This document shows positions 16,238-61,890 of a stretch of 64,000 nucleotides of DNA, in pieces. The stretch's first letter is position 1. Each line of letters begins with the position of its first letter. Location: contig CAUTNA010000004.1 in NCBI GenBank assembly GCA_963540515.1, positions 585 to 64,584 on the forward strand, read 5' to 3'. The notes beneath the pieces are model-generated. The model was given only the letters and a program-made list of their open reading frames with translations, had not been told where the DNA came from and did not search any database. The DNA is from an uncultured Alphaproteobacteria bacterium (GTDB taxonomy: Bacteria > Pseudomonadota > Alphaproteobacteria > Rs-D84). The translations under genes were made by a program, and so were the position numbers.

Positions 16238-16918
16238 TTGAATAATAACAGTATAGAGCCTTCCAAATTACTTTCAAGAATAATTATTTTTATTCTCGCT
16301 TCTTCTTTTGTATCAATCATTGTTCTTATTCTTGCAATTGTTAATATTTTTCCACTAGAAAAAACTCAATTATTTTTTCTTACAACAGAAACTCCTAAAG
16401 ATATCGAAGTTAACATAACCTCTTTTATGCCAAATAAAGATAATTTAGAGACTTTGAAAGAATCTTTTATTAAAGAGTATATAAAAGTTAGAAATGAAAT
16501 AGTACCGGATGCTAACTTTATGAGAAAAAAATGGTCAGCAACAAATGAAGGATATGTATATTTATGGAGTTCTGAAAATATATTTAAGTCATTTACAAAA
16601 ACATCTATGTGGAACGCATATATGAATGATAAACCAGATATTGAATTTAATTGTCCTGTCGAATTTACGAGCATAAAACCTTGGTCATCTTCTGATAATA
16701 CTTACGCTGTAAGTTTTAGATACTTCTGTTCAGATATTAATAGACAAACACTTAAGAAAGATTATACAATACTTGTAAAAATAGAGATTGAAAATAAGTT
16801 AAAATGGACTGAAAGATTACAAAATCCACTTGGAATAAAAGTTGTAGAATATAAAATAGAGACAGGGGAAAATGATCCTTTAGATTTTGGTTTAAATTAT
16901 GGTTCATCTAAAGAATAA
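16238..16918 (+). CDS. virB8: Type IV secretion system protein VirB8 (TTG start)
   Basis: 226 aa with an N-terminal cytoplasmic segment, one TM, and a periplasmic domain ending in the VirB8 signature NPLGIKVVEYK (NPxG motif). It is followed in an operon by VirB9- and VirB10-like genes. Confidence 0.6.
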   Translation: MNNNSIEPSKLLSRIIIFILASSFVSIIVLILAIVNIFPLEKTQLFFLTTETPKDIEVNITSFMPNKDNLETLKESFIKEYIKVRNEIVPDANFMRKKWSATNEGYVYLWSSENIFKSFTKTSMWNAYMNDKPDIEFNCPVEFTSIKPWSSSDNTYAVSFRYFCSDINRQTLKKDYTILVKIEIENKLKWTERLQNPLGIKVVEYKIETGENDPLDFGLNYGSSKE

Positions 16919-16932
16919 ATTAAAGGAAGAAG

Positions 16933-18402
16933 ATGTTTAGTATTGTTAGATTCTTATTTTTTATAATAATTTTATCAATTACAGAAAATTCAAAAGCTGT
17001 AGGAGAATATGGAGTTCAAGAAGCATGGGACAACCCGACAGCAAATATGACTGCAGGAAGTATTAAACCAGGTTATGCACAACTTTCTTGGTCTCAAGGT
17101 ACGGTTCTTCCTATAAAACTCAGGCATGGTATGGTAACTATGATAACTCTACCAGAAGGTGAAGAAATAGAAGATGGTATTGTTGGAGCAGATGGTTTGT
17201 TTGATCTTAAAGCAAATAAGGGGGCAAGAACTTTTCACTTAAGTCCATCTGGAAGTAATCAAGGAGCAGATACAAATTTAATTATAACTGGTAGATCTGG
17301 TAATAAATATTTATTTTATTTAAGAAGTGAACCTTCTAATTCAAGTGAAATTACTTATTCACAAGTCGATATTGTATTAGAAGGAAATGGAACTATTCAA
17401 AATACATCTGTATCTAATTCATCTTATGCTGGAATGAATTCTATTTTTAAGAAAGAATCAAGAAGTTCTCTTGGAGTTGATGGAGAAGATTATGGTTGGA
17501 TAAAAACTATGAAAATAGATCCTTCAGAATTCAGGTTTGATATAGATATTTTTGTACCAAATCCTGACGATTATGTCATAGCACCCGAGCGAGTTTGGAG
17601 AGATAGAATATTTACCTATATTGATTTTGGGGATAAAGTTATAGCTATGACTCAAAGACCAGTTGTATCTCTGTTAGTTGAAGGTGGTGAAAGCCCTGTT
17701 GGTTTCAGAACAGATGGAGAAAATGGAAGACTTTTAATAATTGAAGCTGTTGGAGATATGGTGCTTCGTAGTGGACAACGAATTGTCTGTATAAAAAGAC
17801 GTTCAAAACCATTCTTAATAACAGATACTTCAAGTGTTATGGCTCTTGCGGAGGCAAATGTCGCAAAATCTATGACTTCTAATCAATCTTTTAATAATGT
17901 TGGTTATAATAATTTTGGTAGTGGTATTAATAATACACCTTTGAACTCTAACATGATGCAGACACCTCAAAATAATTCAATAGGAAATTATAATAATTAT
18001 CAAACTCGAAGCAGTGATACTGTTCACATGTTGCCAACAGAAAGAAATACTGCAGGATCATACTTACCAACTTCTGGTATTCCACTTATATCAAGTAATC
18101 AAAAAGGTGTTGCAATCGAATTACAATCAGACACATCTGTAAAGGCATTGAATGATTATTGGACAGGACTTATTGCTAAGTTCAGTGGAGATGATGGAAA
18201 AGGAATACTCACACCTTATAAAAATATGGTATTCTTTGCAGTTGATGAACAAGGTGTTGGGGAACTAGGATCAGAGTCCGTTGCATCTCGTTTATACAGA
18301 TTAAGAATAGGACCATTAAAAGATATGGATACAGCACAAAGCCTTTGTGATAAACTTTTGAAGTTCTCTGGAACAATATGTAAAATTGTACGTGTTCAAT
18401 AA
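16933..18402 (+). CDS. virB9: VirB9/TrbG-like T4SS protein with an N/Q-rich linker and a C-terminal SPOR-like domain
   Basis: Signal peptide; VirB9 N-domain (TNLIITGRSGNKYLFYL); VirB9 C-domain (TYIDFGDK...PVVSLLVEGGESPVGFRTDGEN...VGDMVLRSGQRIVCI). The C-terminal ~100 aa resemble a SPOR domain (YRLRIGPLKDMDTAQSLCDKL, paired Cys), comparable to the SPOR tail of the DacA homolog in this window. Confidence 0.55.
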   Translation: MFSIVRFLFFIIILSITENSKAVGEYGVQEAWDNPTANMTAGSIKPGYAQLSWSQGTVLPIKLRHGMVTMITLPEGEEIEDGIVGADGLFDLKANKGARTFHLSPSGSNQGADTNLIITGRSGNKYLFYLRSEPSNSSEITYSQVDIVLEGNGTIQNTSVSNSSYAGMNSIFKKESRSSLGVDGEDYGWIKTMKIDPSEFRFDIDIFVPNPDDYVIAPERVWRDRIFTYIDFGDKVIAMTQRPVVSLLVEGGESPVGFRTDGENGRLLIIEAVGDMVLRSGQRIVCIKRRSKPFLITDTSSVMALAEANVAKSMTSNQSFNNVGYNNFGSGINNTPLNSNMMQTPQNNSIGNYNNYQTRSSDTVHMLPTERNTAGSYLPTSGIPLISSNQKGVAIELQSDTSVKALNDYWTGLIAKFSGDDGKGILTPYKNMVFFAVDEQGVGELGSESVASRLYRLRIGPLKDMDTAQSLCDKLLKFSGTICKIVRVQ

Positions 18403-20808
18403 ATGAAAAAGTTAAAAAAACAGTTTTTAGAGATAAGAAAAAATATTCCTAAACAAACACAGTGGTTAATGTTAATTGCTGTGTTTGTAATAGTGCTTAT
18501 ACTGATGACATTGCTTCTTAATAAAAAAAATAATAGAACAAAAATTCCAGATATTAATACAGAATCTCCAGTACTTACAATTTCACCTAAGACAGAATTA
18601 GATTTAACAAATATTGAAGTTGGAGATACAAGAATAGAAGACTTTATTATTTCAGCAAATAAAGATGTAAAAGTATTATCTGTAAAATTTGAAAATGATA
18701 TAGAAGGACTTTCAAAAAAAACAACTTGTGAAAATATAGGAAAAATAAATACAAAAGTAACTTGTAATATAAATATTGAATTTAAACCAAAAAATAAAAT
18801 AGACACAAAAATAACTGCAATTTTAATTGATTGGAGAGGTGCTTTTGAACCTGAAAAAATGAATAAAACAGACAGAATAAATATAACAATTAATTCTAAA
18901 GAAAAAAAAGATGAAAAAATTGAGATAAAAGAAGAATCTGAAAAAGTTAGTTCTGATACTAATAAAGAAGAACAAAAGAAAGAAAATGAAACTATTGATA
19001 CTAAAGAAGAAATTAAAGGAAATATAGAGACAGAAAAAATTGAAGAAAATAAACCAATAATTTCAGAGGAAATTAAAGAAGAGATAAAAAAAGATATAGA
19101 AGATATTTCAAAAGATCCTTTAAAAATGGAAGAAGAATTTGAAAAAACTACAGAAGAAGATACAAATGAAAATAAAAGCGAGAGTTGTTCAGAATTTTCA
19201 TTTCCAGGATATAGTATATCAGGGGATCAAATTGGTTGGATAAAACCTGAAAAAGGATCATATAAATTTTATCCTTTTTCTGATAAAACTTGTACAAATC
19301 CAACAGGTACATACAACCCAGATAATGGAATTATAACTGATATAAAGGATTCATCAAAAAAAATAGGAACTGATGCTGATCATATTGGAGGAGCAACAAA
19401 TATAACAGTATCAAATATACCAAGCCTTTCAAAAGCACCAGATGCAAGACCAGTAAATAAAGCAAAGCAACTAACCGCAGACGAAGTAAAAGATTTTACA
19501 TATGGAGAGGCTAAGCAAGTTGTAGTACAAACAAGCGATTTTAATAAATATAAACCTTCTTCTTTAGGACAAGATAATGGAACTAATAGTAATGTAACAA
19601 TATCTAGTGAACCATATAATAGAACATTTGTACTTCGTCAATATAAACCAATACCTGCTACAATTGTAACAGAAATTAAAGCAGTTAAAGATGGTTCAAA
19701 ATTACCAGTTACTGCAACAGTTGATAGAAATGTTTATTCAGATAATGGAAGAACAATTATACTTCCAACAGGAACTTTAATGCTTGGGTATGTTTCAGAT
19801 GAAAATGTACCTGGTCCATATAAATCAATAGGACGTATGAATTTAGAATGGTATCGATTTGTAAGACCAGATGGTGTTGAATTTAATTTTATTGATAAAA
19901 GACCTTTTGCAGGTGATGCACAAGGAAGATCTGGAGTTCCTGGGCATGGTAGTACCGATTATATAGAAGAATTTTTTATGCCAATGTTAACTGCAATTGT
20001 TCCTGCTGCGGTTAATATGATAGCACCAATTTCAGATAAAATAGTGAATCAAATTAACTTAGACTCAAATGTAGTAACACAAACAGGACAAGTAAGATCC
20101 TCTGAACTTGCAAAAAATGAAATAGTTAAATCTTGGGATAGAATAGCACAAAAATTATTAACAGATTCTATGAATAATACAGTGCCACCATTTTCAATAG
20201 CAGCAGGAACAAGAATTACCGTATACTCACCAACTGATTTAATTGTAACTTGTGGTGAAAATACAGGTAAAAATTGTGCTATAACAGCACCAAGTAGAGA
20301 ATATGCAGAATATAAACCTAAAAACTTGGAACCTGGTGGAGGAGATTATAAAAATTCTTTAGTTGGACAAGTTAGATCTTTTAATTTAGACGGTTTTTGT
20401 ATGACAGATGAAAAAACTCGTAGAATAACCGTTGATGAAAATAAGCTTAAAAATTCTGGTTATGACTATAGAACAGTATTATTCTATTGCCAATCAAAAC
20501 AATATGATGCGATTAATAATGCCAAACAAGATGCTATATTTAAAAATCAACAAGAAATTGGTGGTAAGATAGAGAAAGGATCAAAAGAATATAATGAGAA
20601 AACACTAGGACTGGAATACGAAGGAGATAAAATAAAAAATCCATTTGAACAGAAAAAAGAGGAAGCACCTTCTGGTTTGAAATGTGAGGATGGAACATCA
20701 CCAGATTCAAACGGATGTTGTACTGGTGAAAAATATACAGATATGGGTGAACAAGGATTTAATTGTTGTCCTGAAGCAGGTGGTGACTGCTTCCCACCAT
20801 TAAAATAA
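18403..20808 (+). CDS. virB10: VirB10/TrbI-like T4SS protein with an E/K-rich repeat linker and a Cys-rich C-terminal extension
   Basis: N-terminal cytoplasmic segment plus TM (LMLIAVFVIVLILMTLLL), then a low-complexity E/K/I repeat region. The TrbI/VirB10 beta-barrel motifs DAQGRSGVPGHG and AAGTRITVYSPTDL are present. Beyond the usual C-terminus there are ~190 extra residues with at least 12 cysteines. Confidence 0.65.
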   Translation: MKKLKKQFLEIRKNIPKQTQWLMLIAVFVIVLILMTLLLNKKNNRTKIPDINTESPVLTISPKTELDLTNIEVGDTRIEDFIISANKDVKVLSVKFENDIEGLSKKTTCENIGKINTKVTCNINIEFKPKNKIDTKITAILIDWRGAFEPEKMNKTDRINITINSKEKKDEKIEIKEESEKVSSDTNKEEQKKENETIDTKEEIKGNIETEKIEENKPIISEEIKEEIKKDIEDISKDPLKMEEEFEKTTEEDTNENKSESCSEFSFPGYSISGDQIGWIKPEKGSYKFYPFSDKTCTNPTGTYNPDNGIITDIKDSSKKIGTDADHIGGATNITVSNIPSLSKAPDARPVNKAKQLTADEVKDFTYGEAKQVVVQTSDFNKYKPSSLGQDNGTNSNVTISSEPYNRTFVLRQYKPIPATIVTEIKAVKDGSKLPVTATVDRNVYSDNGRTIILPTGTLMLGYVSDENVPGPYKSIGRMNLEWYRFVRPDGVEFNFIDKRPFAGDAQGRSGVPGHGSTDYIEEFFMPMLTAIVPAAVNMIAPISDKIVNQINLDSNVVTQTGQVRSSELAKNEIVKSWDRIAQKLLTDSMNNTVPPFSIAAGTRITVYSPTDLIVTCGENTGKNCAITAPSREYAEYKPKNLEPGGGDYKNSLVGQVRSFNLDGFCMTDEKTRRITVDENKLKNSGYDYRTVLFYCQSKQYDAINNAKQDAIFKNQQEIGGKIEKGSKEYNEKTLGLEYEGDKIKNPFEQKKEEAPSGLKCEDGTSPDSNGCCTGEKYTDMGEQGFNCCPEAGGDCFPPLK

Positions 20809-20973: not shown

Positions 20974-21672
20974 TTAATCTCTCCAAGATACAGATTCAAA
21001 TAAACTATTTATTTTATTTTTATATTCAATATCATTAAAAAATTTATTTCTCTCTGTATCTGTAGTTTTGTTATCTTCTTTTTCAAAATGAGGAATATAT
21101 TTTTGAACAGCATATTTTTTAACACCTTTAGATGATAAAAATTTAGCTATTTCTAATAAATCTTCTTTAGAGATAAAACGAGGATCACAAGTTGTTCTTA
21201 CTTCTCCATCTTTGCCTGAATCTAACCAAACTTGTAAACTTTTTAATAAAAAATCATATCCTAAAGAAATTCCTGTTACCCTATCAAAATTATTTTTAGT
21301 TCCTTTAAAATCTAATCCCAACCAATCTACAAACTCTAAAGCCTTTTTCAATTTTTCTGGATAAAAGCCATTTGAATGAAGTCCAATATAAAAACCCATT
21401 TCTTTAACAAGTTTTATATATTCAATTAAATTATCTCCTTGCATTAAAGCTTCACCACCTGAAAAAACAACTGCTTCTAATTTTCCCTTCCTTGTATTTA
21501 ACCATTCTAAAATTTTATCAGGATCATATTCACCAAGACCAACTTCAATAAGATGAGGATTTGAACAGTAAGGACACCTCATAGGGCAGCCTTTTAAAAA
21601 CAAAACGGCGGACAACTTTCCAGGATAATCAATAGTTGTAAAAGGGGTAAAACCGCCGATTTGTATAGTCAT
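20974..21672 (-). CDS. nrdG: Anaerobic ribonucleoside-triphosphate reductase activating protein (radical SAM)
   Basis: CPMRCPYC radical-SAM cluster motif near the N-terminus; 232 aa; adjacent to nrdD. Confidence 0.85.
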   Translation of the reverse strand: MTIQIGGFTPFTTIDYPGKLSAVLFLKGCPMRCPYCSNPHLIEVGLGEYDPDKILEWLNTRKGKLEAVVFSGGEALMQGDNLIEYIKLVKEMGFYIGLHSNGFYPEKLKKALEFVDWLGLDFKGTKNNFDRVTGISLGYDFLLKSLQVWLDSGKDGEVRTTCDPRFISKEDLLEIAKFLSSKGVKKYAVQKYIPHFEKEDNKTTDTERNKFFNDIEYKNKINSLFESVSWRD

Positions 21673-21681
21673 AAAATACCT

Positions 21682-21855
21682 TTAAGCAGCTTTTTTCAAA
21701 AGAGAGTTATGGCGCATTCCTGCAGATATTCCATTTTCTTCTTTAAACATTTTTCTTTCACAAAATTCAGAATACTTACCAATATTAAAATTAGAAACAG
21801 GTCTGATAAAACCCATAGATCTTGAAAATACTTCACATTTTGTTCTTTCTTTCAT
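21682..21855 (-). CDS. Small glycyl-radical-domain protein: a separate C-terminal module of class III RNR (start placed at the ATG preceded by the AGAGGAG Shine-Dalgarno; the track ORF begins 3 codons earlier at GTG)
   Basis: SRSMGFIRPVSNFNIGKYSEFCERK matches the NrdD C-terminal glycyl-radical motif (R-x-x-G-Y/F ... N-x-G-K...E). It has its own RBS and is in a different frame from nrdD. Confidence 0.5.
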   Translation of the reverse strand: MKERTKCEVFSRSMGFIRPVSNFNIGKYSEFCERKMFKEENGISAGMRHNSLLKKAA

Positions 21856-21878
21856 TTTTTTCACTCCTCTGTTTTTTG

Positions 21879-23891
21879 TTAATCAATCTTTGTTTCATTT
21901 GCAACTGAAAGTTCTGCATCACACTTTGGGCAGAATTCATATTTACCAGCCAAATAACCGTGCTTTGGACATATTGAAAATGTTGGTGTCAATGTCATAT
22001 AAGGTATCTTATAATTCTCAAAGATAGTTTTTACTATTTTTTGTGCAGCCTCTCCTGATGATACTGGTTCTCCCATATATAAGTGCAACATAGTTCCGCC
22101 CGTATATTTTCTTTGCAGTTCTTCTTGATGTTCCAAAGCAACAAAAGGATCATCTGTATAGTTAACTGGTAATTGAGATGAATTTGTATAGTAAGGTGCA
22201 TCTTTTGTACCAGCAGTTATTATATCTGGATAATTTTTAATATCAGTTTTAGCAAATCTGTATGAACAACCTTCAGCTGGTGTTGCCTCTAAATTATATA
22301 AATTTCCAGTTTCTTCTTGGTATTTTACCAGATTATCACGAATGTAATCCATAACCTCTAATACCAAATTTTTACCAAAATCTGTCGCAATACTATCTTT
22401 ACCAGAAGTAAAGTTTAAAACCATTTCATTAGAACCATTTATTCCAATTGTTGAAAAATGATTATTCCAAGTATTTAAATAACGTTTTGTAAATGGATAT
22501 AGTCCCCTTTCCATATTTTTAGTTATAACTTTTCTTTTTATCTCTAAAGATTCTCTTGCTAAATCAAGAAGTCTTTGTAATTCTCTGAATAATCCTTCTT
22601 TATTACCTTTATAAATATATCCAAGTCTTGCCAAATTAATAGTTACAACCCCAATAGATCCTGTTTTTTCAGCAGAACCAAATAATCCACCACCACGTTT
22701 TAAAAGTTCTCTTACATCTAAACGTAATCTGCAACACATAGAACGAACATCAGTAGGGTTTAAATCAGAATTTAAAAAATTCTGAAAATTTGGTATTCCA
22801 TATTTTGCAGCTAAATCAAATAAAGGCTTTGTATTTGGATGATCCCAAGGAAAATCATCTGTTATATTGTATGTAGGAATTGGAAAAGTAAATGGTCTGC
22901 CGTGTGCATCACCTTCTGTCATAACTTCAATAAAAGCTTTGTTCAAAATATCCATTTCTTCTTGAAGTTCTCCATAAGTAAAATCAACATATTTTCCACC
23001 AACAAAAGGTTTTTGTTCTCTCAAATCTTTTGGACAAACCCAATCAAAAGTAAAATTGATAAAAGGTGTCTGAGTTCCCCAACGACATGGAACAGCACAA
23101 TTAAAAACAAGAGTTTGCATAGCATTTTTCACATCTTTATAAGATAATTTATCAACTCTTATATATGGGGCAAGATATGTATCAACAGATGAAAAAGCTT
23201 GAGCACCAGCAAATTCATTTTGAAGTGTTCCCAAGAAATTTACCATATGCGATACAGCTGTCACCATATGTTTTGCAGGTGAACATTGTAAAAATCCAGG
23301 AACTCCATTAAATCCTTCATACAACAATTCACGAAGTGACCAACCTGCACAATATCCAGTAAGCCAACCAAGATCATGAATATGAACAGCTGCAGTTTTA
23401 TGAGCCTGCGCTATTTCTTCTGGGTATAAATTTAACCAATATTCTGCAACAACTCTTTCTGATGTTCTTAAAATAAGTCCACCTATTGAATAACCAACAT
23501 TAGCATTCTCTTTAACTCTCCAATCTGCTGCTTTTACATATCCATCAATAATATCAACAGCATCAACCATAGAATTTCTTATTTCAGCTTTCTTTTGTCT
23601 ATAGACTATATAAGCTTCCGCAGTCTTATAAACTTTAAAATTCATTAATTCTTCAACTACTATATCTTGTATTTCTTCAACAGATGGAATTTTATTAGCA
23701 AAGCGATCTTCAAGTCTTTTTATAATACTATCTACTATATCTAAAACCCTAGAATCATTAATTTCTCCAGTAGAATCAGCTGCTTTTTTTATTGCATTAA
23801 ATATATATTTTGAATCAAAAGAAACCTGACTTCCATCCCTTTTTATTACGTAGTTTAAACCAGAATTACAAGAGCAATTATCACAACACAT
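21879..23891 (-). CDS. nrdD: Anaerobic ribonucleoside-triphosphate reductase, class III, catalytic subunit lacking the terminal glycyl-radical segment
   Basis: 670 aa with an N-terminal ATP-cone-like region and a C-terminal Zn ribbon (CPKHGYLAGKYEFCPKC). The ORF ends before the glycyl-radical motif. Confidence 0.85.
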   Translation of the reverse strand: MCCDNCSCNSGLNYVIKRDGSQVSFDSKYIFNAIKKAADSTGEINDSRVLDIVDSIIKRLEDRFANKIPSVEEIQDIVVEELMNFKVYKTAEAYIVYRQKKAEIRNSMVDAVDIIDGYVKAADWRVKENANVGYSIGGLILRTSERVVAEYWLNLYPEEIAQAHKTAAVHIHDLGWLTGYCAGWSLRELLYEGFNGVPGFLQCSPAKHMVTAVSHMVNFLGTLQNEFAGAQAFSSVDTYLAPYIRVDKLSYKDVKNAMQTLVFNCAVPCRWGTQTPFINFTFDWVCPKDLREQKPFVGGKYVDFTYGELQEEMDILNKAFIEVMTEGDAHGRPFTFPIPTYNITDDFPWDHPNTKPLFDLAAKYGIPNFQNFLNSDLNPTDVRSMCCRLRLDVRELLKRGGGLFGSAEKTGSIGVVTINLARLGYIYKGNKEGLFRELQRLLDLARESLEIKRKVITKNMERGLYPFTKRYLNTWNNHFSTIGINGSNEMVLNFTSGKDSIATDFGKNLVLEVMDYIRDNLVKYQEETGNLYNLEATPAEGCSYRFAKTDIKNYPDIITAGTKDAPYYTNSSQLPVNYTDDPFVALEHQEELQRKYTGGTMLHLYMGEPVSSGEAAQKIVKTIFENYKIPYMTLTPTFSICPKHGYLAGKYEFCPKCDAELSVANETKID

Positions 23892-32352: not shown

Positions 32353-32670
32353 ATGAAAAAATTTACACAAAGAAAAGAAGATTTTATTTGTGAAAATTGT
32401 GGGACAAAAGTTAGAGGCAATGGTTATACAAATCATTGCCCAAATTGTTTATATTCAAAGGATGTAGATATAAATCCAGGTGATAGAAAATCCATTTGTA
32501 ATGGAATTATGAAACCAATATCAATAGAAATAGATAAAGATACTTTCATAATAACACATAAGTGTTTAAAATGTGGAAAAATAAGTAAATGCAAAAATTC
32601 TGAAAATGACAATATTGAAGAAATTATAAATATTTCAAAAAATTCAAACTTTATATTTGGTAAAAAATAA
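32353..32670 (+). CDS. RNHCP-domain zinc-ribbon protein
   Basis: CENCG...TNHCPNCLYSKDVD...CLKCG; 105 aa. Confidence 0.5.
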   Translation: MKKFTQRKEDFICENCGTKVRGNGYTNHCPNCLYSKDVDINPGDRKSICNGIMKPISIEIDKDTFIITHKCLKCGKISKCKNSENDNIEEIINISKNSNFIFGKK

Positions 32671-34601
32671 TGAAAGAATTTTTTTATACACAAAAACAAA
32701 ACATTTTAATCTGGATTGCTTTTTTTATTACTATAGGATCTATCTCATATTTTTTATTACCCTTTGAACCTAATATAATAATATTTTCAATAATTTCTTT
32801 TTTAATAAGTTTATTTATAATCTTATTTAAAAGAAATTTTCTTATAATTTTTCTATCCTTTATATTTGGTTTTATATATCCATTGATTTTTGCAAGAACA
32901 ATTAATACATTTAAAATATCCCATAACTATAAAAATATATCTGTTTATGGAGAGATTGAAGATATAAACTATGAAAAAGATAAAACAAAAATTATATTTA
33001 AAGTTATTGAATCTAAAATTTCAAATAAACCTTTCAAAGTAAAACTATCCTCAAATCAAAATCTAGATTTAAAAGTTGGAGATAGACTTATTGCAAAAAT
33101 ATCTTTATTTAAACCAAATTCAAAATCAGATCCTGCATCTTTTGATTATGCTCGTTTTTTATACTTTAATTCTATAACAGCAACCGGATTTTTAGATGAA
33201 TATTTAAAAGAAGAAAATGTAAATTCCGATAATATAATAAAAAAATTACGATTATATATTCATAAAAAAGCAAATTCTTTTTTAACCGATAGCTTATTCT
33301 TAGGATATAAAAATACAATACCTAAAGAAGAAAAAGAAGTTTGGCTAAAATCTGGAATTGGACACATCTGGTCAATCAGTGGACTTCATATAACAATAAT
33401 ATCAATTATTTCTTTCTTTATATTTTTTAATATATTCAGATTAATTTCACCTATAACTAAAAGATTTCCTGCAAGATATCCAACAAGTTTTATAACTATC
33501 TTTTTTATTTTTCTGTATTTATTAATATCAGGTTCTAATGTATCTACTATAAGAGCTGTACTTTCTGCTTTTATTATTTTTGTTGCATTTGTATTAAATA
33601 GATATTCTGTAAGTATAAGAACTATGTCTATAGTATATTTAATTACCTATTTATTTAATCCACATTTTTTAATGCAAGCGTCATTTCAACTTTCTTTTTC
33701 TGCAGTAATTGGAATCATTTTCATAGTAGAAAAAATTAGAAATAATAACAGAAACTTTAAAAATAAATTAAAAGTATTTTTATCAATACCTATCATATCA
33801 AGTATATTTACATTACCTTTTTTAGGAATACATTTTCATTACTTCCCTTTATTTTCATTAATTGGAAACATAATTATTTTACCAATATTTTCTTTTATAA
33901 TAATGCCACTAGTATTTTTAGGAACTATTTTTAGTCTGTTTGATTTTAAATTTATAAATAGATTCACAATAAATATATACAATTATATTTATAATAACTT
34001 AGATTTTATGTTATCTAAAATCTCATATACCGAAATTAAAATTCCATTTATATCAAATACATCTATGCTTTTTATAATTACAGGACTATTTTTTATAATC
34101 GCAATAATAAACATAGATAAAAATAAATTCACCAAAAACGCTAACTTAATTATTGGTTCCTCTTTTATAATATTAGGATTAATATTATCTTTTTTTACAA
34201 AAAAGCCATTATTTTATATAACTCTTGATCATGAACTAATAGCAGTATTAGATAAAAACAACTTAAAATTTAATAAAACAAAAAGTTCAAATCATTTTTT
34301 TGTATTTAATAACTGGAAATATATGAATAATGAGAAATTAAATACTCAAAATTTAAAATATAATTGTAAAAAAGGATTATGTCTGTATAAAACAGATAAA
34401 TGGACAATTGCATATACAAAAAGATTCAAAATACTAGAAAAAAATTTAATAAAATTATGCAAAGATAAAAATATAACTTATATAGCAAGTTATTTTGATA
34501 TAGAGGCAAAAGAGTGTAATAAAAAGATTTTAAAAGATGCCTTTGTTATATATGAAAGTGGAAAAGTAGAATACATAAAACAAAACAGAATCTGGAATTA
34601 A
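32670..34601 (+). CDS. comEC: ComEC/Rec2-family DNA internalization membrane protein (no obvious metallo-beta-lactamase domain)
   Basis: Polytopic protein; the WLKSGIGHIWSISGLHITII segment matches the ComEC competence domain; 643 aa. Confidence 0.6.
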   Translation: MKEFFYTQKQNILIWIAFFITIGSISYFLLPFEPNIIIFSIISFLISLFIILFKRNFLIIFLSFIFGFIYPLIFARTINTFKISHNYKNISVYGEIEDINYEKDKTKIIFKVIESKISNKPFKVKLSSNQNLDLKVGDRLIAKISLFKPNSKSDPASFDYARFLYFNSITATGFLDEYLKEENVNSDNIIKKLRLYIHKKANSFLTDSLFLGYKNTIPKEEKEVWLKSGIGHIWSISGLHITIISIISFFIFFNIFRLISPITKRFPARYPTSFITIFFIFLYLLISGSNVSTIRAVLSAFIIFVAFVLNRYSVSIRTMSIVYLITYLFNPHFLMQASFQLSFSAVIGIIFIVEKIRNNNRNFKNKLKVFLSIPIISSIFTLPFLGIHFHYFPLFSLIGNIIILPIFSFIIMPLVFLGTIFSLFDFKFINRFTINIYNYIYNNLDFMLSKISYTEIKIPFISNTSMLFIITGLFFIIAIINIDKNKFTKNANLIIGSSFIILGLILSFFTKKPLFYITLDHELIAVLDKNNLKFNKTKSSNHFFVFNNWKYMNNEKLNTQNLKYNCKKGLCLYKTDKWTIAYTKRFKILEKNLIKLCKDKNITYIASYFDIEAKECNKKILKDAFVIYESGKVEYIKQNRIWN

Positions 34602-46410: not shown

Positions 46411-47721
46411 TTATTTTTTTAAAGCATCTTTTGTAGATTTATAAATTTTTTGTATATCTGAAATTAATTTCTTAACATCACTAACAATTTTATTACCACT
46501 TGAAGTATCTACACTTCCACCAATACTTTTAGCAAAAAATTCTGTTTTAGTTAATAGGTATCCAATAAGTAATCCAGAGATTAAAAGTGTTATAGAGTCA
46601 TAATTTTCTGCATTTGAAACTGATTTAAAATCTATACCAACACCAGCAAAAATAGCAAAACATAGTGATATAATAATAGATAAAGATATAAAATATATTA
46701 TTGCATTTACAAACCTTTGAATTGCTGAATCTAAAGAATTTCCATTAAATATCCCCATAAATTTATTGAAAACAACTCCTGCATACCCATCATAACTTGT
46801 TCTCATACTACCACCAGATACAATAGTATTTGTTACACTTGTAAAAATATTTGAATTTGAATCTTCTTTTCCAGAAAAACAATGTGATATTGCAGTGAAA
46901 GGCAACATTAATATTACTAAAAACAAATCAACAATAACTGAAAAAGACATTAAAGCAAATTTCCATATATTTATTAAAAATATAAAAACTAAAGAAACTC
47001 CTAAAATAAAAGTAAAAGCACTTGTTCCAATACCTAAAAACATTAACTTAAAACCAGAAACTATTGCAGAATAAAAAAAACCAGAAAATCTTGTCGATAA
47101 ACACAGTAGAGAAGATATATCTTCTGATTGAAGAATACTAGTTGTTGAATTACCAACAAAATTTTGTACAGCCGTACAAGTATCTGGTAAATTAGTTCCT
47201 ATAGAACTTGCAACAGAACCCAAAATTGTATCCGAAATTAAAGTACCTAACATAAGTAAAGGTTTTATTATCCACATAAATAATTGTTCTGGGGACTGCT
47301 GTATTATAAATATCCATATAAAGATAAGTATTGCCTTCTTTACAGCACTTTCAAATAATATACTTGGTTTTGATGACTTCTTTATCATTTGATAAATTTC
47401 TAAGGTTAACCAAAAAATTAAAGCAATTGTCATAAATATAGATACAAAATCAACAAATGAATTTTTCAGAATATAACTAATATTTGACATAGCTTTTATA
47501 AGAGCAAATCCAAGCCTTGCTTCAATTGGTACAAAAGTTTTATCTGAAAAGCTTGTCTGAAATGTTCCTTGGAAATTTTCTAAATCTGTTTTTATTGTTG
47601 AATTTATTGATTCTCTATTGTTTTCCGTTGTCCAAGAACCAAAATTTCCGATATCCCCACTATCACCAAAACAATTAGATGAAAATATTAAAGCAATTAA
47701 AAGAATTATTTTTTTTATCAT
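46411..47721 (-). CDS. VirB6/TrbL-like polytopic membrane protein, paralog 1
   Basis: Signal peptide, periplasmic N-domain and at least 5 TMs; tandem with four similar genes. Confidence 0.4.
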   Translation of the reverse strand: MIKKIILLIALIFSSNCFGDSGDIGNFGSWTTENNRESINSTIKTDLENFQGTFQTSFSDKTFVPIEARLGFALIKAMSNISYILKNSFVDFVSIFMTIALIFWLTLEIYQMIKKSSKPSILFESAVKKAILIFIWIFIIQQSPEQLFMWIIKPLLMLGTLISDTILGSVASSIGTNLPDTCTAVQNFVGNSTTSILQSEDISSLLCLSTRFSGFFYSAIVSGFKLMFLGIGTSAFTFILGVSLVFIFLINIWKFALMSFSVIVDLFLVILMLPFTAISHCFSGKEDSNSNIFTSVTNTIVSGGSMRTSYDGYAGVVFNKFMGIFNGNSLDSAIQRFVNAIIYFISLSIIISLCFAIFAGVGIDFKSVSNAENYDSITLLISGLLIGYLLTKTEFFAKSIGGSVDTSSGNKIVSDVKKLISDIQKIYKSTKDALKK

Positions 47722-49145
47722 TTACTTTTATTTACCATTTTTAATATTCTCTCGGGAATACTTTTTACCGTTTTACCAAGAGTTTTTAAATATCCTCCAT
47801 AATCAAATTCTTCTTTTCCAATACTACCTAATATTTCATCTATTTTTGGAGAAACTAAATAAAAATATATAAAAAATATTCCTATCATAAGAATTATAAA
47901 TTCAAAACCATTATCCATAAAATCAAAAGCCCCAGGATATTTTCTTTCTACTTCTGCTTTTTTTGCTGTAAAACAATTCTTAAATTTATCTTTATCTAAC
48001 TTTCCATCTTCAATAGATATTTTTTCACAATTTGAAAAGACAGAAATTATACTATCAGTCTTTGCATCTATATTTTGTTTATTTTCTAATATTGGAGGTA
48101 ATATTGCATTATAACCATCTTGCGGTGCTGGAAAATATTCATCTGCACAAAATGATATAATAGAATATAAAACTAACGTTTTTAAAGTTACAGATACTAT
48201 TTTTACAGAAGAATCTATAATCATATTAAATGCGTTTGGAACAACATTTTTTGCAATAGTCCAAGTTTTTTCAAATGTATAAAAAAATATAATAATAGGA
48301 AAAAAAATAATAATAAATATTAATTTAAATAAAACAGATAATATTTGAAAAAATAGATTAAAACCAATTAACATAAACATAATAATAAGCCCAAAACCAG
48401 CTAACCAAGTGAGTGTTCCGCCACCAAGTCCAAGCCAAGAATAATTCATCAATGCAAAGCCACCAGATACACCTGCAAGACTTATGAAATTTATATTTGA
48501 AATTGTGCACATAAAAGGGCGCATAATTGGATTCAACAAATCATTTGATTCTTTTATCTCCATATTACAACTTGATGAGTATGCAGTTTTTGTTGCAATC
48601 ATAGATATTTCACTACCTATCAACATAACAGGTGATATTACTATACTTGATAAAGACTTTAAGAAAGAAATATTTGAATTATTAGTGTTTGCAAATACTA
48701 AAAAACTTCCAACTATAATTACTCTGATACCTTGGTTTAGTATTTTATCAAATAAAGGTTTAAATTCTAATTTCTTATCCCCTGCATCCAAAACAGCATT
48801 TTTTTTCGATGCTTCATATAAGTGCTCTGCTATTGATACAATTAGAAATATTCCAAACCCTAAGAAAACTAATAAAGATAAAGTTCCAACTATTTTTATC
48901 CAGAAATTTTCTGCAACATTCCCAATCATTGCAAAAAGTCTTTCTATATAACTACACAAAAAACAACTGTTTGATGAAGCTATATCACCATCTTTTACAC
49001 CAATAGCAGATAAAAAATTATCTATACTTGAAAAAGATATTGAAGATCCACCAATTGCAACCGAAACATACCAAACACCTAATCCTATCAATATAAGATT
49101 AATACCAAATTTTATACATAAAGAAACAATTTTTGCTTTTAACAT
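47718..49145 (-). CDS. VirB6/TrbL-like polytopic membrane protein, paralog 2
   Basis: N-terminal CFLCSYIERLF motif shared with paralogs 3 and 5; multi-TM; 4-nt overlap with paralog 1. Confidence 0.4.
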   Translation of the reverse strand: MLKAKIVSLCIKFGINLILIGLGVWYVSVAIGGSSISFSSIDNFLSAIGVKDGDIASSNSCFLCSYIERLFAMIGNVAENFWIKIVGTLSLLVFLGFGIFLIVSIAEHLYEASKKNAVLDAGDKKLEFKPLFDKILNQGIRVIIVGSFLVFANTNNSNISFLKSLSSIVISPVMLIGSEISMIATKTAYSSSCNMEIKESNDLLNPIMRPFMCTISNINFISLAGVSGGFALMNYSWLGLGGGTLTWLAGFGLIIMFMLIGFNLFFQILSVLFKLIFIIIFFPIIIFFYTFEKTWTIAKNVVPNAFNMIIDSSVKIVSVTLKTLVLYSIISFCADEYFPAPQDGYNAILPPILENKQNIDAKTDSIISVFSNCEKISIEDGKLDKDKFKNCFTAKKAEVERKYPGAFDFMDNGFEFIILMIGIFFIYFYLVSPKIDEILGSIGKEEFDYGGYLKTLGKTVKSIPERILKMVNKSK

Positions 49146-49148
49146 TTA

Positions 49149-59987: not shown

Positions 59988-61166
59988 TTGAAGAAAACAA
60001 TTCTTTTTTATTCGTTATTTTATTTCTCTTTTGCTTTTGCAGATGTTCATTTACCAATAGTTGATGTGTCTTCTGGACAAATATCTGCAAGAAAAGCTTT
60101 TGGGGATGAAGATGTTCTTGTAAGCAAAGTTGTAAGCTTGCCTAAGGAAGAAAAATTACAAAAAAAACAACCAACAGTTATAAAGGTTGCAAAACCGAAA
60201 TCTATAAAGAAAGATAATATTCTTTCACCTCAAAAACCAAGTAGTAATTTATGGACAAAGCATTATCCTTCAAAAAAGGAAAATGATATTATTTTAAAAG
60301 ATGAAACCTTGGAGATGGTAAGATCTAAAAATAATACAAAAGATAATAACGATAAAAAAATAAATGATTTAGATTTACAGATATCAAGATTGATTGAACT
60401 TCAAAAGAAAGCTGAAGAGAGTTTAAAGCAAGATTCAGTATTTGTTAAAACTAATGATGATAAAATTTATTCAAATATTGAAAATAATATTAAAAATAAA
60501 AATGATGTACAAATTCGTAAAATTTATGTTCCATCAATAGATTCTGATGAAGAAATAAAAGAAGAACCTAAAAAAAATTTATCAGAAGTAAAACAAGTTC
60601 AGAATTTTAATGAAATGTCTTCTATGTCTCCATCGGAGTTAAAGAAAGCTTTTAAAAGAACTTACCTATCTGAAAACAAACATCTATCCACTTATAAAGT
60701 TGAGGATAAATTTGATGTAGTAAGTGATTTGTCAAAAACAACTGAAGGTTTTTCTTCAACTAAAGATTTATCAGAATCCTCAGGTATAAGACCTCTTGAA
60801 ATCAAAATAGGATTTTTAGGAAATGATTCTTCTCTTTCAAGAGATAATTATAACTTACTTAGTGAGTATGCAAGTATAGTTGTAAGTAATCCTAAAAGGG
60901 CTGTTCAAGTATCTATACCAGAAAAATCAACAAGAACTCTTGATGATAGGAAAATTGCAGCAAAAAGGTTAGTTATTGTTGAACAAGTATTGAAAGATAT
61001 TGGTATTTCTGAACAAAAGATTGTCCCAGTACTTTCTCAAAGAAATGATGATAGTTTCATTTTGAGAGTTATTTCCTCTGATCAGTATGAAACTCTTACA
61101 CAACAAAAAAGAGATATGTTTGGTGATCAGGTTGTTTCAAAGACTTATAAAAGTTTATCTTGGTAG
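59988..61166 (+). CDS. Hypothetical secreted K/E/D-rich protein (TTG start)
   Basis: Signal peptide MKKTILFYSLFYFSFAFA followed by a low-complexity charged region; no recognised domain. Confidence 0.35.
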   Translation: MKKTILFYSLFYFSFAFADVHLPIVDVSSGQISARKAFGDEDVLVSKVVSLPKEEKLQKKQPTVIKVAKPKSIKKDNILSPQKPSSNLWTKHYPSKKENDIILKDETLEMVRSKNNTKDNNDKKINDLDLQISRLIELQKKAEESLKQDSVFVKTNDDKIYSNIENNIKNKNDVQIRKIYVPSIDSDEEIKEEPKKNLSEVKQVQNFNEMSSMSPSELKKAFKRTYLSENKHLSTYKVEDKFDVVSDLSKTTEGFSSTKDLSESSGIRPLEIKIGFLGNDSSLSRDNYNLLSEYASIVVSNPKRAVQVSIPEKSTRTLDDRKIAAKRLVIVEQVLKDIGISEQKIVPVLSQRNDDSFILRVISSDQYETLTQQKRDMFGDQVVSKTYKSLSW

Positions 61167-61890
61167 ATTTAAAATTTTATTTGATAAATTAGTAAATTTT
61201 ATATTTCCTGCAACTTGTCCAATTTGTAAGAATAATGTTTTATCAAATAATGATTTATGTCCAGATTGTTGGAATAAAATTAATTGGATAAGTTCTCCTA
61301 AATGTTATAAATGTGGTTATCCTTTTCCTGCTAATCTTGATAGAGAAAAATTTATGCTATGCCCAGATTGTATAAAAAACAAATCTAATTTAGATATGAT
61401 TCGATCTAGCTGTGAATATGATAGTTTTTCAAGAGAAATTATTCTGGCTTTTAAATACTCTAATACTTTCAGATATAATAAATTAATATCTGGTTCTATG
61501 ATAAGAAATTTAAAAGATATAGATGATAAAATTGATTTAATAGTACCTATGCCTTTATCTTATTTAAGACTTATAAAAAGAGGTTATAATCAGGCAACAC
61601 TAATTGCAAAACCAATTGCTAAATATTTAGGAGTAAAAATAGATATAAATAGTATTAAAAGAAAATATAAAGAAAGTACAAAAGGAAAAAGTTTTAAAGA
61701 AAGAAAAGAAAATGTTAAAAATGTTTTTAAAGTAGTGAACAAAAATAAGATAGAAGGAAAATCAATTTTAATTGTTGATGATGTTATGACATCTAAATCT
61801 TCTTTAGAAGAATTAGCAAAAACTTTAAAGAAGGCAGGAGCAAATAAAATATTTGCTGTAACCTTTGCAAGAACAGTGATAGATATTTAG
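61087..61890 (+). CDS. comF: ComF-family protein (double zinc ribbon plus phosphoribosyltransferase fold); the 5' end overlaps the preceding ORF by 80 nt and the true start is uncertain
   Basis: CPICKN...CPDCW...CYKCG...CPDC zinc ribbons; C-terminal PRTase motif ILIVDDVMTS. Confidence 0.6.
   Translation: MKLLHNKKEICLVIRLFQRLIKVYLGRFKILFDKLVNFIFPATCPICKNNVLSNNDLCPDCWNKINWISSPKCYKCGYPFPANLDREKFMLCPDCIKNKSNLDMIRSSCEYDSFSREIILAFKYSNTFRYNKLISGSMIRNLKDIDDKIDLIVPMPLSYLRLIKRGYNQATLIAKPIAKYLGVKIDINSIKRKYKESTKGKSFKERKENVKNVFKVVNKNKIEGKSILIVDDVMTSKSSLEELAKTLKKAGANKIFAVTFARTVIDI

Follow-up and report, generated by a model that had tools for sequence, protein, structure and literature searches.

The subject of this report is virB10, a gene at positions 18403-20808 of a 64,000-nucleotide stretch of DNA from an uncultured alphaproteobacterium of the order Rs-D84 (GenBank assembly GCA_963540515.1, contig CAUTNA010000004.1; the whole stretch is called the window below). 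Its predicted product carries, behind the conserved TrbI domain of VirB10 proteins, a cysteine-rich tail that is real and lineage-wide. The terminal 45 residues of the tail form a six-Cys module that was shown to be a portable C-terminal domain, attached by the same bacteria to other Sec-exported or inner-membrane-anchored proteins, and the most variable spot of the operon lies mid-tail, within the same 187 amino acids (aa). The architecture of this VirB10 is unreported and the portable Cys module is new, and as far as the literature was searched this would be the first VirB10 with a folded C-terminal extension.

A VirB10 homologue with a cysteine-rich tail

The Pfam TrbI model (PF03743) matched aa 411-613 over profile positions 2-186 of 188, with 71.4 bits against a cut-off of 35, and the VirB10 domain model of NCBIfam matched aa 406-613. 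These matches agree with the first-pass annotation of this DNA, which had called the product a VirB10 homologue. Both NCBIfam equivalog models scored below their cut-offs, VirB10 (NF038091) with 65.5 bits against 220 and ComB10 (NF038092) with 59 against 300, and on these scores the product is a member of the TrbI/VirB10 family and the equivalog of neither model. Sequence matches of the TrbI region in the PDB were ComB10, CagY, VirB10 and TrwE. The closest solved relative by sequence, Helicobacter pylori ComB10 (2bhv), aligned to aa 410-614 (E 1.6e-8); its chain stops 15 residues further on and has no comparable tail. The VirB10 of an Agrobacterium plasmid stops 25 codons past the matched domain. 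From these comparisons, 187 aa extend past the canonical end, the TrbI domain closing near aa 614. The motif CCTGEKYTDMGEQGFNCCPEAGGDC quoted in the first-pass annotation is present, and its proposal that the conserved domain ends ahead of a Cys-rich extension of about 190 aa in the same protein was borne out by this alignment and by the reading frame, which runs through 801 uninterrupted codons with no frameshift or separate open reading frame (ORF) and is closed by TAA TAA. The CC pairs that it described in the tail were also found, two in number; its count of at least 12 Cys was too high, as the tail holds 10 (residues 617, 625, 666, 696, 761, 772, 773, 788, 789 and 796).

The tail is shared by orthologues throughout the lineage. 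A homologue search returned 877 relatives, the best 120 of which are 759-842 aa long and 46-94% identical; 118 of these 120 cover 99-100% of the query. When one genome per GTDB species was scanned, relatives were found in 286 genomes, and in the best 80 of them, which are the 80 species loci referred to below, the match reaches residue 797-801 in every case and begins at residue 1-4 in 78. Across 81 species the tail measures 185-229 aa and contains 10 or 12 Cys, the number being always even. The tail Cys are conserved in 99-100% of 120 homologues and the four N-terminal Cys in 90-100%. All 14 Cys of the protein lie outside the cytoplasmic and membrane-spanning segment, none lies in the TrbI domain, and each unit of the protein holds an even number (2, 2, 2, 2 and 6). 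The titles of the best 80 records name 'Candidatus Enterousia', uncultured Alphaproteobacteria or Rickettsiales (some records, such as Muribaculaceae, are evidently mislabelled) and give human, chicken, ruminant, horse, mouse, rabbit and termite guts as sources; complete chromosomes of 0.72-0.96 Mb are among them. Where homologues carry a label it is only 'TrbI/VirB10 family protein' or 'hypothetical'. Enterousia belongs to the order Rs-D84, which is described as fermentative, with a genome below about 1 Mb, most biosynthesis lost and a suspected dependence on other cells (PMC12306168). The words 'secretion' and 'VirB' are absent from the main text of that comparative paper, and no paper pairing 'Rs-D84' with 'type IV secretion' was found in the literature search.

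Canonical VirB10/TrbI proteins (Agrobacterium tumefaciens VirB10, TraF of pKM101, TrwE of R388 and Xanthomonas citri VirB10) have an N-in transmembrane (TM) helix, an extended periplasmic linker and a C-terminal TrbI barrel with an antenna, and are encoded directly after virB8 and virB9. The present protein is predicted to share this plan, the antenna with low model confidence, but is about twice as long, with two extra folded domains before the barrel and the tail after it; it is doubled relative to canonical VirB10 (about 380-450 aa) by lineage-specific extracytoplasmic add-ons on both sides of TrbI. A bitopic topology was predicted from a Lys-rich N-terminus and one hydrophobic helix at aa 21-39, modelled by AlphaFold2 (AF2) as helix 17-39 with a predicted local distance difference test score (pLDDT) of about 80, so that everything past aa 40 would lie outside the cytoplasm. 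The two added domains (aa 55-168 and 261-330) are folded, Cys-paired and conserved, and stand in the normally disordered N-terminal periplasmic part of VirB10; the first-pass annotation made no mention of them. The first is Ig-like and has no counterpart in canonical VirB10; in a Foldseek search against the PDB it matched the PapD-like domains of HYDIN, SPD-2 of CEP192 and ASH of OCRL (E 6e-5 to 2e-4), and a weak NCBIfam match to 'choice-of-anchor D' was seen at aa 52-130 (E 0.004). The second, a small beta domain, shows 70-81% identity to homologues over aa 276-325. No counterpart of these N-terminal add-ons is known to have been reported for ComB10.

The full-length AF2 model, built from a 50-sequence alignment, is confident locally and poor globally (pLDDT 58; predicted template modelling score (pTM) 0.26). 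The helices predicted for the two-helix antenna, 519-548 and 565-591, are at the expected place with pLDDT below 60, and the confident pieces of the tail are aa 660-720 and 765-795. A model of the tail by itself (pLDDT 68 overall, 87-90 at aa 666-695) consists of a short alpha/beta domain and a terminal beta-hairpin unit. The protein ends in ...GGDCFPPLK, without a hydrophobic helix. A C-terminal sorting signal (PEP-CTERM, GlyGly-CTERM, LPXTG or the C-terminal domain of type IX secretion) was considered and rejected: there is no terminal hydrophobic helix, the tail has no match in Pfam or NCBIfam, and internal copies of the terminal module exist.

A portable module and a polymorphic loop

The six-Cys module is the best-conserved piece of the protein, with 85% identity over aa 776-800 among 120 homologues. 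An exhaustive profile search of 1.84 billion representatives gave only 261 matches at E <=0.001. This search and one made with the tail only recovered VirB10 tails plus other proteins that share only the last ~45 residues. The latter include signal-peptide proteins of ~215 aa with two or three copies of the module (P0198, P0217 and P0240), single-copy exported proteins of 58-130 aa (P0228 and P0268) and a trypsin-like protease (P0354). A further family of ~680-850 aa (P0259, P0274 and P0277) lacks a TrbI domain and carries the module last, behind a cytoplasmic coiled-coil domain, a single TM helix and a long periplasmic linker rich in Pro, Ala and Glu. In 245 of the 248 module-bearing proteins retrieved the module ends at most six residues from the C-terminus. 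VirB10 is the only carrier in the window.

Specificity of the module for type IV secretion was rejected, because the gene contexts of P0198 and P0274 are not secretion loci. The gene for the double-module protein P0198 (loci L001-L004) closes an operon with a MacB/FtsX-type permease, an ABC ATPase and several unknowns, and that for the ~680-aa bitopic protein P0274 (locus L093) follows gcrA and lies beside a divergent cluster that includes a prepilin-peptidase gene. As all carriers are Sec-exported or N-in bitopic, the module operates outside the cytoplasm. Two of them are inner-membrane proteins with long periplasmic linkers, following the same logic as TonB, TolA and VirB10, which suggests that the module may be a docking domain that reaches the outer side of the periplasm. 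Its ligand would inform envelope organization in the Rs-D84 clade generally.

The module is undescribed, and no domain model for it exists in Pfam or NCBIfam. It resembles granulin in its CC-containing Cys spacing and its predicted beta-hairpin, and granulin A (2jye) and the N-terminal subdomain (1g26) ranked third and fourth in Foldseek as the only Cys-rich small domains near the top. The fold match is not significant (E 4-7 over 19-32 aligned columns), the Cys pattern differs, and Pfam Granulin gave no match. Membership of the granulin/knottin-like mini-domains was accordingly rejected, with neither a significant sequence or fold match nor the Cys spacing of the family.

Evolution among strains was followed in the window protein and seven full-length variants (793-804 aa) from a cluster of at least 90% identity, all with the same synteny; nonsynonymous (dN) and synonymous (dS) divergence were estimated by the Nei-Gojobori method and pooled over 28 pairs (Table 1). 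The two parts of the tail differ sharply. No nonsynonymous change was recorded in the module, and dN, which is 0.002-0.036 in VirB10 up to aa 614, rises to 0.129 at aa 615-700. Nucleotide diversity (pi, 150-nt windows over 8.4 kb) is 0.003-0.024 except at a single peak of 0.164 at 20337-20486 (aa ~646-695), which has shoulders of 0.04-0.08 and exceeds the downstream intergenic region. Haplotype blocks in this hot spot are shuffled into a mosaic, and two strains carry a deeply divergent allele between the invariant Cys666 and Cys696. As dS is raised there too (0.30-0.41), relaxed constraint alone is insufficient, and imported or long-maintained alleles are needed to account for the peak; uncertain alignment near indels may contribute some of the excess.

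The part of the protein that varies among strains is therefore the proximal tail and not the E/K linker, in which the first-pass annotation had placed tandem repeats and a possible variation in length between strains. It was right that the linker is E/K-rich in place of Pro-rich: aa 169-260 are 50% E+K and 2% P, and the consensus of relatives is Pro-rich in this segment. No tandem repeat was found there by Tandem Repeats Finder (TRF) even at a minimum score of 30, and a direct-repeat search gave only imperfect pairs of 70-78%, typical of low complexity. Nor does its length vary among the eight strains, which are at least 94% identical and differ in the linker by about six substitutions and no indel. 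Over a wider range, the aligned region aa 160-262 is 62-113 aa long among 120 homologues. Locus GC spans 0.28-0.55 across 81 species and correlates positively with the Pro content of the linker (rho +0.66) and negatively with its E+K content (rho -0.54); the GC of the window locus, 0.279, is the lowest of all, so that the E/K character reads as compositional drift in a spacer.

A VirB10 homologue expanded by repeats in the manner of H. pylori CagY was likewise rejected, there being no tandem repeats by TRF and no change in linker length in the eight strains. The extra regions of CagY contain regularly spaced Cys and are strain-variable; they lie N-terminal to the VirB10 domain and are true tandem repeats, which vary by repeat recombination. 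The extension described here is C-terminal and free of repeats, and its variation takes the form of allelic substitution and mosaicism. The two proteins resemble each other in sequence only within the VirB10 domain (query aa 406-548). Both are VirB10 homologues enlarged by accessory regions, greatly so in CagY (PMC6620104).

Position and role of the tail

The reading preferred here, tentatively and with slightly less than an even chance of being correct, is that of a periplasmic tail just below the outer membrane that decorates a secretion core, with the module as its docking domain and the loop as a strain-specific contact surface. On this reading the gene would supply VirB10 to a type IV secretion machine that is encoded on the chromosome and inherited vertically in uncultured gut Alphaproteobacteria with reduced genomes. 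Only the antenna of VirB10 crosses the outer membrane, and VirB10 is the centre of the O-layer (PMC9371333), from which it is inferred that the tail should start in the periplasm, once per protomer. The chain would leave the last barrel strand on the periplasmic side, just below the outer membrane, and each VirB10 protomer would contribute one tail to the surroundings of the outer-membrane core. Even numbers of Cys in every unit and species point to disulfides, of which there would be five in the tail of this protein. Through the invariant module the complex would be docked either to a conserved component of the envelope or to other proteins that bear the module, in a stabilizing and anchoring role like that of the VirB7-type accessory subunits of other systems, and the Cys666-Cys696 loop with the preceding linker would provide the contact surface. 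A SPOR-like C-terminus on VirB9, of a peptidoglycan-binding type, fits a core complex that is unusually tied into the envelope. That the module is invariant (dN = 0) in bacteria whose hosts range from termites to humans is easier to reconcile with a self ligand than with one from the host.

In the type IV secretion system known as X-T4SS, VirB7 has an extension that is a folded N0 domain and not Cys-rich. The core subunits VirB7 and VirB8 of that system are a precedent for clade-specific C-terminal add-ons, the extension of VirB8 being an Ala/Gln/Gly/Pro-rich stretch that differs from the present tail in not being Cys-rich (PMC6536674). For VirB10 itself, no C-terminal extension was found in a full-text literature search ('VirB10' with 'C-terminal extension'), in passages of papers that it returned or in passages of the review PMC9371333.

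Several results weigh against the preferred reading. With a full-length pTM of 0.26 the placement of domains is unreliable and the location of the tail is inferred; reading its position from that model was rejected on the same ground. The raised dS and mosaic alleles of the hot spot are more typical of an external surface, or one contacted by phages or partners, than of a spacer buried in the periplasm. The scan of window ORFs turned up no Dsb-type gene, and bacteria of this lineage are strict fermenters that lack a respiratory chain (PMC12306168). The tail found no match in Pfam, in a full-length NCBIfam scan or in a PDB profile search, and no fold match pointing to a function. Finally, virB11, virD4, virB4 and other VirB2-6 genes were all absent within 10 kb of virB10 in the 80 species.

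Display of the tail on the cell surface, as a disulfide-rich adhesin or recognition module in contact with a host or partner cell, was the proposal of the first-pass annotation and appears unlikely. The polymorphism is what gives it weight: nowhere in the 8.4 kb is polymorphism higher than in the proximal tail, a hot spot as expected of a contact surface under diversifying pressure, its dN is ~100-fold that of VirB8 and VirB9, and the raised dS and mosaic haplotypes suggest imported alleles or balancing selection. The average dN/dS of the hot spot, 0.68, is nevertheless below 1. Two invariant Cys enclose the variable loop, as in the exposed loops of some pilins, and accessory regions of CagY have been reported to reach the surface. 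These bacteria are thought to depend on partners (PMC12306168). VirB10 topology does not support a surface position, as the tail begins past the last barrel strand on the periplasmic side, and no membrane-spanning or autotransporter-like segment and no adhesin-like fold was recognized in it. The terminal module is moreover common to periplasmic and inner-membrane proteins unrelated to secretion, and is invariant across bacteria from very different animal hosts.

About as improbable is a related but more elaborate proposal, that the tail forms a crown on the machine by which these gut bacteria, obligately dependent on partners, recognize a partner or target. If so, the hypervariable disulfide-bounded loop would be exposed, either directly or on opening of the channel, an arms race against partner cells, phages or the immunity of the host would keep it polymorphic, and the invariant module would lock the crown to the envelope. 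Linked to this is the possibility that the island is part of a ComB-like machine for DNA uptake, which would feed the cell with nucleotides. In H. pylori the comB operon likewise closes with the genes for B8, B9 and B10 and lacks B11 and D4. ComEC (32670-34601) and ComF (61087-61890) are encoded in the window and the Enterousia/Rs-D84 lineage is unable to make nucleotides (PMC12306168); with ComB10 as the closest solved relative, these make ComB-like uptake a possible alternative to export of effectors or DNA.

A still more doubtful reading takes the Cys as ligands of Zn, Cu or Fe and the module as a small metal-binding envelope domain of a strict anaerobe. Two invariant CC pairs and two single Cys fall within 36 residues, and the quinone-dependent DsbB route may be missing from a cell without a respiratory chain; no Dsb-like gene was seen in the window ORFs scanned. 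The reported lack of respiratory chains places the disulfide machinery in doubt (PMC12306168). Set against this, Cys numbers that are even in every unit and in every species are the signature of disulfide-forming exported proteins, the AF2 model is a beta-hairpin knot whose only structural neighbours, not significant, are the disulfide-stapled hairpin stacks of granulin, and no arrangement of His, Asp or Glu such as metal sites usually show was noted.

An artefact of annotation or assembly (a frameshifted or fused downstream gene, or non-functional read-through) can be regarded as excluded, with virtually no probability left to it: the separate short ORFs that carry the tail in some metagenome assemblies are, wherever the upstream region is called, pieces of split virB10 genes at the same locus, the ORF of the window is continuous, full-length collinearity holds for at least 78 of the 80 species loci and, among homologues, for 118 of the best 120, and no part of the protein is under stronger purifying selection than the terminal module. 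The splits fall inside the TrbI domain or the tail and leave two ORFs or an uncalled gap (loci L094, L095 and L096); they are either assembly frameshifts or real pseudogenization in some strains. Wherever the upstream region is called, the 'tail-only' proteins of the databases overlap or directly follow a truncated virB10, and their status as independent genes was rejected.

The virB8-virB9-virB10 island and the window

The virB10 start directly abuts the stop of virB9, and virB8, virB9 and virB10 make up an island of three genes (Table 1) that is flanked in the window by secE-nusG-rplKA-rplJL-rpoBC on one side and nrdG-nrdD-yidC-lspA on the other. Its place between housekeeping genes identifies the locus as chromosomal and not a plasmid. 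The order nusG-virB8-virB9-virB10-yidC(-lspA) is kept in 65-80 of the 80 species loci, virB8 lies upstream of virB9 in 76, and the neighbourhood of virB8 and virB9 with virB10 is kept in 76-79, which marks the island as vertically inherited core genome. No conserved extra neighbours were found in the 80 loci. There is no room for a virB7-like gene within the island, the virB8 start being 115 nt from the divergent secE ORF. Unlike in the Agrobacterium plasmid locus, no virB11 or virD4 follows virB10 in the 80 species, a difference that holds against Rickettsia as well. Among the other window ORFs scanned, no Pfam match to further type IV secretion components was obtained. A promoter and terminator scan gave sites no more frequent than in shuffled sequence.

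Table 1. Features of the island and of its VirB10 protein, with strain-level dN/dS
Feature	Position	Strand	Description	Basis	dN/dS
virB8	16238..16918	+	226 aa; first gene of the three-gene island	Pfam VirB8 PF04335, E 2e-12	0.03 (whole; dN 0.001)
virB9	16933..18402	+	489 aa; CagX/VirB9 domain aa 50-289	Pfam CagX, E 1.2e-19	0.04 (whole; dN 0.002)
VirB9 C-terminal SPOR-like domain	18070-18399	+	110 aa, after N/Q/S-rich linker; extension ~200 aa in all		
virB10	18403..20808	+	801 aa, whole ORF		
Cytoplasmic N-terminus and TM helix	18403..18522	+	aa 1-40; Lys-rich, single TM ~21-39	Sequence; AF2 helices 2-14, 17-39, pLDDT 72-85	0.06
Ig-like (PapD/ASH/MSP-type) beta-sandwich	18565..18906	+	aa 55-168; Cys109-Cys121 pair	AF2 pLDDT ~86-92	0.13
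E/K-rich disordered linker	18907..19182	+	aa 169-260; Pro-rich in relatives	AF2 pLDDT ~27-45	0.10
Small conserved beta domain	19183..19392	+	aa 261-330; Cys262-Cys297 pair	AF2 pLDDT ~76-86	0.05
Second variable linker	19393..19617	+	aa 331-405	Low pLDDT, low conservation; strain indels aa 389-397	0.30
TrbI/VirB10 C-terminal domain	19618..20244	+	aa 406-614; no Cys	Pfam, NCBIfam, PDB sequence matches	0.16
Cys617-Cys625 clamped hairpin opening the tail	20245..20277	+	aa 615-625	Both Cys invariant (120 homologues); AF2 strands 614-617, 625-628, low pLDDT	0.68 (aa 615-700; dN 0.129)
Hypervariable part of the tail	20278..20502	+	aa 626-700; variable linker 626-652 and loop bounded by Cys666/Cys696		0.68 (aa 615-700; dN 0.129)
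Conserved helical rest of middle tail domain and short spacer	20503..20670	+	aa 701-756	AF2 helices 689-698, 704-717, 728-733	0.23
Terminal six-Cys module	20671..20805	+	aa 757-801; C-x10-CC-x14-CC-x6-C-FPP		0 (dN 0 at dS 0.144)

Both subunits of the outer-membrane core are remodelled in this lineage, VirB10 by the Ig-like domain and the Cys-rich tail and VirB9 by the SPOR-like domain, which is not known to have been described on a VirB9 before. The last 110 aa of VirB9 have a mean column identity of 88% over 30 species and contain two invariant Cys. SPOR (PF05036) matched this region in 30 of 30 orthologues at E <=0.1, with a best value of 3e-7; the copy in the window reached E 0.0049 and 17.6 bits, against a cut-off of 21, and showed no BLASTP similarity to the SPOR domain of the DacC encoded in the window.

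Rs-D84 ('Ca. Enterousia') is widespread in human, livestock, rodent, bird and termite guts, and the mechanism by which it makes contact with other cells is undescribed. As a fixed part of the core genome, the island offers a concrete starting point for finding out how these bacteria interact with their surroundings. It also gives a first molecular entry to a gut lineage that is common yet unstudied.

The anaerobic ribonucleotide reductase genes nrdG and nrdD, separated by a small ORF, occupy 20974-23891 on the reverse strand as an insertion between virB10 and yidC. This insertion was found only in the species of the window (eight of eight strains) and in one other of the 80 species loci, and looks like a lineage-specific acquisition. 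The GC content of the window is 22-33% (2-kb windows). Five adjacent genes at 46411-52906, four on the reverse strand and one divergent on the forward strand, encode polytopic membrane proteins of 385-475 aa with 6-9 hydrophobic segments. Three of these proteins are weakly paralogous; the set is lineage-wide (481 matches) and has no Pfam, NCBIfam or PDB match. Their candidacy as VirB6 found no support, with no NCBIfam or PDB match and an hhalign probability of 0.6% against Agrobacterium VirB6. The cumulative GC skew reaches its minimum at ~50-52 kb, and gene orientation switches from mostly reverse to mostly forward at the divergent pair 50309-51544 and 51599-52906 (gap ~51545-51598), as would be expected near an origin of replication; no dnaA was seen close by. 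Not far from the window's left end, a gene for a serine recombinase of the resolvase family at 788-1384 adjoins an unannotated 146-aa ORF at 7-447, and the two may mark a small mobile element.

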